A DNA stretch of 62,227 bases, filler included, from Collodictyon triciliatum (Eukaryota), in assembly GCA_043381765.1 (NCBI GenBank). It is 21 parts of 21 records of this genome, joined end to end, with 100 filler letters (N's around TTAATTAATTAA, not from the genome) between each part and the next. Parts side by side here need not be neighbours in the genome. Positions count along the whole stretch, not along the records: positions 38,636 to 41,498 come from JBHJMP010008166.1; 20 more parts are not named here. The stretch is one strand, 5' to 3'. Numbering within the stretch: the stretch's first letter is position 1; every line of letters starts with the position of its first letter. A program made the position numbers and the translations under genes. Below, piece by piece: positions 38,733-41,498 of the stretch. Below the pieces are notes generated by a model, which was not told the origin of the DNA, did not search any database, and saw nothing but the letters and a program-made list of their open reading frames with translations.

Positions 38733-39996
38733 ATATTGAACGAGTTGTGAGTAAGAGAAAAATGAAGGAATGCATAAATTGATTGCATCCTTAAAGTCGA
38801 GTGAGGGTGGGTATTTAATTGAACATGACAAGTATGAAAAATAGTGATAAAATGTATGTCATTTCTCGTGATACCCTTATGGCACAAAGGGGGAAAATGA
38901 ATACAAACCTTTTCCCTTGGGACCAGGCTAAGTTAATCCTCGTTTATTGAACAGGCCTGGTTATATATGATAAAGGTAGATAATAAGTGAAACAAGTGTA
39001 TGAATCTTGGCACACATAGACTCTAGTTGTAAAACTCTGCAATAACCTTTTATGAAGAGAACAGCCGCCCAAGGAGACGATTATTCCTAGCGAGTGTTAA
39101 GTCGCTATGGGAAAAGGATACCTTTTTCTTTTCTTTTTTTTTTCGTTCCACGCCTATGTCCAGTTGCTCTATTATTTTATAGAAATGAAGGAAGGAATAT
39201 CGCTTGGCCTTTATTCTCGTTATCGGTTTTTTCATTTTTCATTTTTTTTTCATTTTTTTTTCATTTTTTTCATTTTTTTTTCATTTTTTTCATTTTTTCA
39301 CTGTTTTTCATTTTTTTCATTTTTTCATTTTTTCATTTTTTCACTGTTTTTCATTTTTTCACATTTTTTTTTTAAAAAAAAAGAAAAAGAATGAAGTGGA
39401 ATATGATGTGGAAACGGGTGTTGTTCAAAAGGTAGTTGGATCTAAGGTGATAGTGAAAGTTGAGCGACGATACACAGAACATCAACTCAGATCAACAACT
39501 AAGAAGGTAAATATGTGAAGATAATGGGCAAAAAGCATGCTTTGAAAGACCACACACAATTATATATTCTGCTTGGCAACATTATGTCTTTCCATTTATT
39601 TTAACAGCAGTACATCTGAGTCGCCGGCCTCTTCATCGGGCATTACTTGTCCTTTTAAGGTATTGTGTTTCTACTCCCCGTGTCTTGAAAAGGCCACGCC
39701 CTCCCTTGTTTTTCTTTTTCTTTTTCTTTTGGAACAAAAAATGATCTGCGTTCTGTAAAACTCTTTGCAGAAGACTTCAGCAGCTGCCCAAGAGGTGCGA
39801 CAAAGTGAGAAGGAAAACAAGAAGGCGATATCCGTTCGAGTGTAATTGTTTAGCTTTGGAATCTGTCAAACTGTGCTGCTTGGACATCGCCTTCTGATTC
39901 ACAAGTAACACGCAGACGAACCCACAAGCTGACAATAGCCGCATCGTGTCATAAATGTTAATAGGAATAGTATCTTCACATCAATTTTATCGTATA

Positions 39997-41498
39997 CTAG
40001 GAGGAGTATACAATCTTTCGAAAAAAACTTGGTGCGCTAGTATCGAGGGTCTCACCACTTTTTTTCAAAAAGGTCGTGTAGTGGTGAAGCCTGCCAGGAA
40101 AGACCCGACAGCATATTGTTTTAGAGAAAGATGTAGGCTTATTTTGAAGAATTGAAAGAACTTGATTGAGTATATTTTTAGCGCAGTTGAAGTCCCTTGT
40201 CAAGAATACACTTTGTTTGCTTTCTGAGCGATTGCATTCTTTACATAAGAGACATATATACATCTTTTTTTGTATTTCCTTTCAGTGTCATATATTACAG
40301 TTCTTTTTCGCAGTTGCAGCACATCTTGGAGATTCAAAATTCATTTACACTAACTGTTTCAAAACTTTCGGATAGTATTTTTCGCAATCCTCTTCCGATT
40401 TTTGGCATAAAGTGTTTCATTGGACATTTTCTGCTCCATTCTCCATACGCCAGTACAACATCCTTGCCTAATGTCTTTTCGATTCGGTCCATAAACAATT
40501 CTTCACTTCTTTTTGTATTAACATACTGTCTCCATCTCATCTTTCGAAAAATTACGTGAACATAGAAACTGGATAATTCTATCTGGTATTTTGATTTCAT
40601 AGATACATATTTTCGAATTTTTCATAATCGACCGTGCATGAATTATGTTTACTCAGTTCTGTCTCTAAATCGATTAAAGATACTCTTGATGTCTCAAACT
40701 GCTGATTCTCTTCAAAAGTCACGGCACCAAAAGAAATAGCACTTTGTAAATCTGTTGTCATGCATATCCTGAAGAATTGTACTTTTTTTTTCACGCAAGA
40801 GTATTTTGTGATTTTTAAGAGATTTTCTATCTTCTCTTGTTTGGCGTACCGTGTAACGTGATTTCTTGCCTGCCTCATCCACCATGTAAACCAAATTAAA
40901 CTCGCCTGCGTCCACTCTGACTATTTTTTTTTCCCTAGTAAATGTAACTGCTCTTCAGAAAGTTCATCTATATAAACATATTATTGGTGTTTTTGGTTAT
41001 ATTTGATTCTGAATTTGAAATAGCTTTCTTTTCAAATAATAATGACACCGCCAAGCCGTCTGTTTGTATCATGTATTTAACATTGTAGTCTTTTTGATGA
41101 AAGACTCTCTTCTTCATTTCAAAGAACTCATCATATAGGGTCTCTGCATCCTGATGTATTCTCCAGTAATAATGATTTTCCAGTTGATACTTAGACTTAT
41201 CAAACATGCGTTATTTAAAGTAATATGACATGGTATATTGTTAGTTCTTATAGGGATTGGTTGATGCTTTTTGATTCCAATGCCCTCAAAAATGTGATTC
41301 ATGTAAATCAGACATGGAATGAACTTATTTGGATTGACTTTGACGTGATATTCGATACCTTTTACAATATTGCTGGGAATGATATGATGCAAATGCGTTT
41401 TAGCTCATTCTTTATATTGTTCAGGTATTTCGAGTTTCTTGAATATGGCTTTTTTCTAACTCTCGTAACTCTGCCTTTTTAATAGCTTCCGTAATATT
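39997..41498 (-). mobile_element. Fanzor1 element, frameshifted copy B (5' end off contig), with conserved 3' end
   Basis: YHVKVNPNKFIPCLIYMN, HQPIPIRTNNIPCHITL, YMIQTDGLAVSLLF (Fanzor1 TDG motif), RuvC-I VRVDAGEFNLVYM, FRKMRWRQYVNTKRSE, AYGEWS, RuvC-II VNEF, MCCNC...CLLCKEC, RuvC-III TRDFNCAKNIL. Multiple stops and frameshifts, no introns. Confidence 0.93.

Follow-up and report, generated by a model that had tools for sequence, protein, structure and literature searches.

The 62,227-nucleotide (nt) stretch of DNA from the Collodictyon triciliatum assembly GCA_043381765.1 that is analysed here, referred to below as the window, harbors two incomplete copies of a Fanzor1 element. One of them, copy B, is found on the minus strand at 39993-41498, where a decayed coding region (40077-41455) is followed by a 3' non-coding tail; it comprises the 3' 70% of a Fanzor1 gene. 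Its homology with the other copy ends at 39993, and the gene leaves its contig (38636-41498) at position 41498. Copy A, on the plus strand at 17830-18398, is composed of the last 157 codons and the tail, and is located at the very start of another contig (17830-20698), by which it is cut. We conclude, with a probability of about 0.9, that copy B represents a Fanzor1 element that has become a pseudogene and is truncated on its 5' side by the contig end.

Within the TnpB family, Fanzor1 forms the branch found in eukaryotes and giant viruses; it is a transposon-borne, RNA-guided DNA cutter. An intact Fanzor1 gene encodes a nuclease of ~620-650 amino acids (aa) with a single RuvC site, composed of an Asp, a relocated Glu and a second Asp, and with a zinc ribbon. 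The 3' end of the element overlaps the end of the gene and is transcribed into a structured RNA (named omegaRNA). The 3' extension of this RNA into the flanking sequence guides the protein, which cuts matching DNA beside a short motif.

The window itself is a chain of ~21 contigs, each of ~2.87 kb, with spacers of the form N44-TTAATTAATTAA-N44 between them and a single gap of 419 N at 49043-49461. Because the contigs are merely chained by these spacers, features that are found on different contigs are not regarded as linked.

Family Identity and Active Site

A first-pass annotation of the window had pointed out the motifs VDAG, VNEF, RDFN and CxxC...CxxC on the minus strand, all of which are found at the places assigned to them. 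Because single open reading frames (ORFs) of copy B are too short for Pfam, the family search was based on a read-through of positions 40202-40621 with stops written as X (P0001) and on an intact relative of 648 aa (P0002). The latter is the one long relative of P0001 in an index of 5.8 billion proteins, with which it shares 66% identity across 85% of the query length (E 3.9e-46). An exhaustive HMMER search yielded 1275 cluster representatives at E≤1e-3 and 250 at E≤1e-10, many of them 600-700 aa long; among metagenome contigs only one distant locus with a relative of P0002 was found (L001, 21% identity). When P0002 is compared with the window using tblastn, it matches copy B over residues 180-580 (E 6e-91) and copy A over residues 470-642 (E 2.6e-22), with no other match in the window under E 1. 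A profile of 54 full-length relatives, which also defines the family alignment used below (residues numbered after P0002), likewise detects copies A and B only in a six-frame translation of the window. The independent E-values (iE) are 5e-71, 2.6e-13, 6.5e-10 and 2.9e-4 for copy B, spread over three frames, and 1.1e-17, 2.6e-10 and 7.1e-9 for copy A, while the next best match elsewhere in the window is found at iE 0.015. The motifs are thus not a chance occurrence.

The relation to structurally characterized proteins is found at three levels. P0001 alone reaches PpFz1 (E 3.7e-7), GtFz1 (8.7e-5) and SpuFz1 (2.2e-3). In a single-sequence search, P0002 matches these proteins at only E 1e-23 to 1e-28 (GtFz1 2.1e-28, PpFz1 2.7e-24, SpuFz1 3.7e-23). 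The 54-row profile matches SpuFz1 at E 2.2e-103 (positions 6-596 of 627), PpFz1 at 3.8e-102 and GtFz1 at 2.2e-82, and the Fanzor1 identity proposed in the first-pass annotation is borne out by this match. The remaining matches in the Protein Data Bank (PDB) are two LaTranC chains (4e-5 and 1e-4), which align with the zinc-ribbon (TNB) domain alone. Two results speak against the assignment: none of seven single ORF pieces of copy B matched a relevant Pfam family, and P0002 itself reaches PF07282 (the Cas12f1-like TNB domain) only at E 0.11. On balance, these sequence comparisons support the assignment of copy B to Fanzor1. A Fanzor2 or a prokaryotic TnpB would have the RuvC and zinc-ribbon core in common with Fanzor1, and 37 of the 54 relatives do match PF07282, a domain of TnpB and Cas12f; such an identity is nevertheless extremely unlikely, because the profile covers the three Fanzor1 structures nearly full length, and no chain named Fanzor2 or TnpB is found among its five PDB matches at E≤1e-3.

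In the family alignment, residues D364, G521, E555 and D604 are invariant in all 54 relatives, and the zinc-ribbon columns C562, C565, C587 and C590 are conserved to at least 90%. Copy B retains all four residues of the active-site region (D, G, E and D). The first Asp is found in RuvC-I, which reads VRVDAGEFN (40921-40895, minus strand as for all motifs of copy B; Asp codon 40912-40910, the D364 column), and the Gly at the canonical RuvC-II place in LAYGEWS (40453-40433). The Glu is located in VSVNEF (40354-40337, Glu codon 40342-40340), and the second Asp in RuvC-III, LTRDFNCAKNIL (40203-40168, TRDFN; Asp codon 40194-40192, the D604 column). The zinc ribbon is represented by CCNC (40321-40310) and CLLCKEC (40254-40234), i.e., the CCNC and C..CKEC pairs are both present.

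In the alignment of P0001, the counterpart of the Glu of VNEF is residue 935 of the MBP-fused SpuFz1 chain, which corresponds to E541 with a fusion offset of 394 (obtained from P0002 residue 4, which is aligned to chain residue 398, and by counting along the P0001 alignment). Saito et al. list E541, D383, N385 and D606 as the residues of SpuFz1 that coordinate the metal (PMC10432273). According to Jiang et al., the canonical RuvC-II position of Fanzors is occupied by Gly or Pro, and an alternative Glu is found ~45 residues downstream (PMC10530073). G521 and E555, which are 34 residues apart, fit this rearrangement, and VNEF is therefore identified as carrying the relocated Fanzor glutamate.

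Decay of the Coding Region

A frame-aware alignment of the coding region of copy B to residues 180-642 of P0002 yields 276 identical codons out of 453 (60.9%). The first-pass annotation had described the motifs as recognizable despite frameshifts, and the alignment agrees: there are four in-frame stops (TGA 41405-41407, TAA 40981-40983, TGA 40334-40336 and TAA 40295-40297) and eight frameshifts (41191, 41154, 41005-6, 40940-1, 40780, 40610-1, 40273 and 40146). The third of these stops directly follows VNEF, and the two Cys pairs of the zinc ribbon are split by the TAA at 40295-40297 and by the frameshift at 40273. The first ~180 codons are absent at the contig end, i.e., copy B holds no intact ORF. 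Six conserved columns are changed in total: seven of nine invariant columns are kept (W288 is replaced by Tyr, and the invariant P365, next to the RuvC-I Asp, by Ala), and so are 20 of 24 nearly invariant ones (the changes being K367E, R388T, E391D and T558I).

The triad is kept, yet the gene is dead, and retention of the triad is uninformative on function. One point that weighs against the count of defects is that three of the eight frameshifts in copy B adjoin runs of 7-9 A bases and are therefore possibly assembly errors. The remaining five are not located next to such runs, and the four stops and the residue changes stand even if the shifts at the A-runs are assembly errors.

That copy B is instead a functional gene, the breaks being introns, sequencing errors, programmed frameshifts or the result of a variant genetic code, is very improbable. 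The frameshifts at the A-runs would fit errors, and the TGA at 41405-41407 is located opposite Trp196 of P0002, as would be expected if TGA encoded Trp. This same codon, however, reads TGG in most other copies of the element in public sequencing runs (runs X2, X5 and X3, described below): at position 41405, a C is found at a depth of 175.6 out of 191.8 in X2, 132 out of 136.4 in X5 and 11.9 out of 11.9 in X3. The second TGA falls opposite Arg557 of P0002, in a column that holds N, K or R in the family and never Trp, and the TAA at 40295-40297 is found opposite a Glu, where copy A has GAA. This mixture of Trp, Arg and Glu means that no single codon reassignment fits, and a long frame on the adjoining contig (944 aa) is open under the standard code. 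Furthermore, the frameshifts comprise only 1-2 nt, which is below the size of an intron, so the breaks are not introns, and the replacement of the invariant P365 and W288 would also have to be accommodated in a functional gene. Copy B is thus a member of the Fanzor1 family by descent and not a working gene; it cannot produce a nuclease, and at most its 3' RNA might still be produced.

The Second Copy and the Right End of the Element

Copy A corresponds to residues 486-642 of P0002, with 95 of 157 codons identical; its frame is shifted twice and contains no stop. The relocated Glu is replaced by Gly, the motif reading VNG in place of VNE. Over 536 nt, copies A and B share 83% identity. The ratio dN/dS between them is 0.45 (153 codons, dS 0.37, dN 0.17), a rough figure; it suggests that selection was still acting on the lineages during part of their divergence.

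The DNA alignment of the two copies runs to CTAGTATA in both (40000-39993 in copy B, 18391-18398 in copy A), beyond which copy B continues with CGATAAAATTG and copy A with TTGTATAAACG. The divergence of the flanks past a shared end is thus as the first-pass annotation had described it. The annotation had drawn the end as CTAG|TATA, four bases before the end of the alignment; both copies have TATA after CTAG, which leaves the boundary ambiguous by 4 nt. The right end of the element would accordingly be located at, or at most 4 nt from, position 39993. The 3' flank of copy B (38636-39992) is AT-rich and of low complexity, and its sequence is unrelated to that of the flank of copy A.

Two independent insertions had been proposed from these observations, and this interpretation is supported for the 3' side, where it was tested; both 5' sides are cut by contig ends. 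The alternative, i.e., that the two copies belong to a single segmental duplication, draws on this same truncation, which leaves the 5' sides without a comparison, but we regard it as very unlikely. On the 3' side, the sole testable one, it is contradicted: the best match shared by the two flanks is 23 nt long (E 0.009), and the GC content is 0.60 beside copy A (bin 18001-20000) as compared to 0.31 in the bin that includes the flank of copy B (38001-40000). Furthermore, the homology of the two copies ends at the same nucleotide, and diverged pieces of the element are found by the hundreds in other runs.

Copy Number in Public Sequencing Runs

None of the public runs contains half of the sequence words of the stretch compared; small shares are found in each of 15 runs from 11 studies, and the runs that share such words are labelled mostly as freshwater or lake metagenomes. 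Contigs were compared with the element at a likeness of at least 80% in four of the 17 listed runs (X1, X2, X3 and X5), of which X2 and X5 may be RNA runs. The number of contig pieces found is 275 in X2, 242 in X5, 124 in X3 and 3 in X1; those in X2 comprise 13 at a likeness of at least 99%, 74 at 95-99%, 109 at 90-95% and 79 below 90%. The multi-copy family that the first-pass annotation had deduced from the presence of two copies is thus seen in X2, X5 and X3.

The summed depth of these pieces rises ~30- to 100-fold at about position 40028, from 1.7 (X2), 4.05 (X5) and 0.31 (X3) in the bin 39971-40027 to 53, 101 and 29, respectively, in the bin 40028-40084. The repeat therefore ends near the boundary of the alignment between copies A and B. 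The flank at 39800-39970 is covered by X5 only, at a depth of ~6-7. In the window, both copies are broken by contig ends inside the element, which is the expected behaviour of an assembler at a repeat.

Collectively, these data support the view that the Fanzor1 element found here belongs to a multi-copy family, many members of which are decayed, as is usual for elements of the Fanzor1 type. We infer that the family has spread by transposition in a freshwater eukaryote.

Relation to Giant-Virus Fanzor1 Genes

In the ESM Atlas, P0002 adjoins clusters with PF26935 (DUF8286) that are 92-100% viral, mostly from Nucleocytoviricota. A search of the IMG/VR viral contigs with P0002 alone gave no relatives; an 8-row alignment found them encoded by 382 of 452 candidate stretches. 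The best 80 of these 382 stretches (L002-L081) make up, together with L001, the set of 81 loci considered below. The viral loci are 38-47% identical to P0002, and many of them belong to giant-virus bins, the contigs reaching 289 kb in length. In 78 of the 80 the frame is complete (555-637 aa), while the other two run off the locus.

A tree including giant-virus copies, as had been envisaged in the first-pass annotation, was calculated with FastTree from 88 rows: copy B (with X at the breaks), 54 relatives of 560-760 aa, four shorter close matches, 28 unique viral frames, and L001 as outgroup. Three cluster-mates of P0002 and P0005, proteins outside 560-760 aa and about two-thirds of the viral frames were left out. 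Copy B groups with P0002 (support 91), and then with P0003 (support 99, starred). This trio is found beside a clade composed of L002, L003, L004, L006, P0004, P0005 and P0158 (support 90, unstarred). Both groups are enclosed by a starred clade of 44 rows, composed of all 28 viral rows and 16 unlabelled ones. It should be noted that the viral rows were picked by their likeness to P0002 and that the unlabelled rows carry no taxonomy. As far as these sequences go, the tree indicates kinship with giant-virus Fanzor1 genes; it defines neither a direction of transfer nor a root.

This kinship raises the question of whether copy B is located within a giant virus, or within an endogenised insert of one, rather than being part of a host transposon family. 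The predominantly viral clusters in the ESM Atlas, the 382 IMG/VR stretches and the position of copy B in one clade with every viral row of the tree would all be in line with such an origin, which we nevertheless consider improbable. The immediate clade of copy B, P0002 and P0003 holds no row labelled as viral. Almost all viral loci have a complete frame, whereas copies A and B are badly decayed, and the number of diverged pieces, from dozens to hundreds in each run, is in line with a eukaryotic repeat family. In addition, the AT-rich, low-complexity flank of copy B contains no ORF longer than 109 aa within 39000-39992, and the large ORF on the adjoining contig has no close relative in IMG/VR.

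In L002-L005, a gene for a DDE_3 (PF13358) transposase with a helix-turn-helix (HTH) domain is located directly upstream of Fanzor1 in the opposite orientation (e.g., DDE_3 and HTH_28 at 1141-2178 of L002, minus strand, likewise in L003, L004 and L005). A homologue of this transposase is found within the 2.5-kb flanks of 26 of the 81 loci. The link agrees with PMC10530073, where Fanzor1 is reported to be associated with eukaryotic transposons, Mariner/Tc1 among them; for the copies in the window, the upstream part of which is missing, it may serve as a lead only. When the transposase of L002 was compared with the window, a single weak match was obtained (45450-45728, E 0.041), which is accompanied by no supporting ORF and is taken as noise.

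Two other features were noted at the viral loci. A small conserved frame of ~96 aa is found just upstream of Fanzor1 on the same strand in ~42-44 loci (e.g., L039 2095-2382 and L027 87-374, both on the plus strand); it matches no Pfam family. In L015, which is part of a viral contig of 248 kb, the gene directly downstream of Fanzor1 is bacteriorhodopsin-like (PF01036, E 1e-22; 4379-5116, minus strand).

The 3' Hairpins and a Possible Guide RNA

The 3' end of copy B contains three hairpins, the third of them decayed. Hairpin 1, CTGTCGGG-tcttt-CCTGGCAG (40091-40111, minus strand), has 8 bp, including two G.U pairs, and is found inside the C-terminal coding region. Hairpin 2, TTCACCACT...AGTGGTGAG (40051-40088, minus strand), has 9 bp, and its loop holds the position of the stop codon of copy A. 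The terminal segment (39993-40044, minus strand) is composed of a decayed third stem, with a GAAA loop near 40015-40022, and the end CTAGTATA. In copy A, the corresponding hairpins are located on the plus strand at 18278-18298, 18301-18337 and 18364-18381, followed by CTAGTATA at 18391-18398. The arms of hairpins 1 and 2 of copy B (40111-40091 and 40088-40051) are found where the first-pass annotation had placed them.

That annotation had also stated that the first two hairpins are largely kept between the copies. For hairpin 1 this holds, the stem being kept in copy A via a change of C-G to U-G. For hairpin 2 it fails in the register that had been chosen, where the 9 bp of copy B face an A.C mismatch in copy A; in the alternative register favoured by RNAalifold, this change is compensated (A-U to G-C). 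Of 25 pairs predicted by RNAalifold for the two copies, one is compensated, in an alignment of two sequences only. The third stem, which had been described as weak, is so in copy B, while in copy A it is clean (ACCAATC-ttcc-GATTGGT, 12 bp in the minimum-free-energy (MFE) fold). A near-intact third stem, with a GAAA loop, is also found in an X3 contig whose loose end is located at 40028 (reverse complement), so the stem is kept, with a loop that varies between copies.

As sense RNA, the last 133 nt of copy B fold at -31.0 kcal/mol as compared to -24.6 ± 3.1 for shuffled sequences (z -2.03), and the last 127 nt of copy A at -42.4 kcal/mol as compared to -31.7 ± 3.6 (z -3.02); for each of the two tails, two of 200 shuffles fold equally well.

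At the viral loci, a conserved 3' non-coding stretch is found in 74 of the 77 that have enough downstream sequence, with similarity over a median of 105 nt. In these 74 loci the module ends in ...GGTGTAAA, an end also written ...GGCGTTTTAAATGTnCAAAGGTGTAAA. Among L002-L081 the module is located 45-95 nt downstream of the Fanzor1 stop codon and has a long terminal stem. The module also contains a hairpin with a covarying stem (e.g., CTCTTC/GAAGAG, CACTTC/GAAGTG and CTGTTC/GAACAG), and it is likely to be the omegaRNA of the viral clade.

In the four loci nearest to the window copies (L002, L003, L004 and L006), the C-terminal coding region contains a hairpin of 10-12 bp, and immediately after it comes another one that starts with TTCACC or ATCAC; the 5' arm TTCACC of hairpin 2 is common to the nearest viral loci. 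Nine of 35 predicted pairs are compensated among the modules of these four loci. The order of the hairpins in copies A and B is the same, a likeness that was judged by eye only.

Several results argue against a guide-RNA reading of the window tails. A longer fold of 268 nt of copy B is less distinct from its shuffles (z -1.47, with 15 of 200 folding equally well). Rfam yields no match at the gathering score in the whole window and only rows at the level of chance (E 4.5-9.9) in 39800-40500. The tails of copies A and B have no blastn match at E≤1e-2 among the 81 loci. A covariance model (R1) built from the 3' modules of the four nearest viral loci finds no match in the whole window with default filters; with the filters off, it scores copy A at 2.8 bits (E 0.25, in register with hairpins 1 and 2) and copy B at 0.1 bits (E 1.3), neither of which is significant. 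Because of the negative blastn search and the insignificant scores of the covariance model, an omegaRNA role of the 3' hairpins is plausible only, and the three hairpins may represent the remnant of an omegaRNA scaffold. If the 3' RNA of copy B were made, its 3' flank (38636-39992) would be the source of the guide.

Comparison with Known Systems

Copy B is a decayed copy of a Fanzor1 lineage, the closest intact relative found being 61% identical. This lineage resembles SpuFz1 (PDB 8gkh), PpFz1 (9cf0) and GtFz1 (9cer) in its full-length profile homology, the columns of the Asp, the relocated Glu and the second Asp, the zinc ribbon, the size of ~620-650 aa of its intact relatives and a conserved 3' region into which the end of the gene extends. 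Copy B differs from these three proteins in being a pseudogene without the first ~180 codons. With the giant-virus genes it shares the starred clade and an identity of 38-47% (to P0002), but the copies in the window end in CTAGTATA, while the viral modules end in ...GGTGTAAA. The tail in the window, counted from hairpin 1 to the end, comprises ~119 nt and has no detectable sequence likeness to the other tails examined. As in the TnpB systems of IS200/IS605 and IS607 (OMEGA), the element would involve an RNA-guided RuvC nuclease with a guide derived from the flank past the right end. Unlike TnpB, Fanzor1 is longer, has the relocated RuvC-II Glu and is hosted by eukaryotes and their viruses, and no TnpA-type gene is seen here.

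Fungi, algae, other protists and giant viruses are on record as hosts of Fanzor1 families that comprise many full and partial copies (PMC10432273 and PMC10530073), with as many as 122 in one genome (PMC10530073). The presence of Fanzor1 in giant viruses is noted in the same two studies and in Bao and Jurka 2013 (PMC3627910). One such family is Spu-1 of Spizellomyces punctatus, for which PMC10432273 lists 42 Fanzor loci, 19 of them full-length, and in addition 134 RNA-only "ghost" omegaRNA loci. The family found here resembles Spu-1, which has full-length and partial copies of the gene, in being multi-copy. The Spu-1 copies are given there as ~82% identical, with 30-nt inverted repeats at their flanks, while the two copies in the window are 83% identical (DNA), both dead and both cut off before the left end of the element.

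Multi-copy Fanzor1 families being known already, copy B alone is of little importance. We consider it unlikely, though worth stating, that the source eukaryote, a freshwater organism, harbors a Fanzor1 lineage sister to the genes of giant viruses, with dozens of copies of which at least one is intact, and that the ~120-nt 3' modules of the decayed copies are still transcribed and serve that nuclease as "ghost" guide loci. If all of this held, it would amount to a live RNA-guided system of virus-to-host derivation, the guide RNA of which is unusually compact. The analysis yields three by-products: the element marks a repeat family that interrupts the assembly, its tail is a candidate for a compact 3' RNA module, and the searches lead to the intact P0002 and to a clade common with giant-virus bins, in which some Fanzor1 genes are found beside DDE_3 transposases.

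Other Sequence in the Window

Beside copy A, a GC-rich island (18650-20000; GC 0.60 in the bin 18001-20000) stands out from a contig that is otherwise AT-rich. It contains long open frames on both strands, the translations of which are rich in Gly, Arg, Pro and Ala. On the contig next to that of copy B, the 944-aa open frame (41543-44377, minus strand; also counted as 925 aa) has a middle part rich in Lys and Glu; it has no Pfam family, no usable match in the ESM Atlas and no close relative in IMG/VR.

Fourteen long ORFs outside the Fanzor copies were compared with Pfam; the sole matches were a CCCH zinc finger (PF00642, E 3.4e-5) in the open frame 52486-53340 (minus strand) and one GAGA_bind row, both of them weak. 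Finally, a simple repeat with a 3-nt period is found at the starts or ends of several contigs (38636-38730, 44561-44697, 11890-11988, 47301-47421 and 10152-10257), 85-100% alike over ~95 nt, and is another breakpoint repeat of the assembly.

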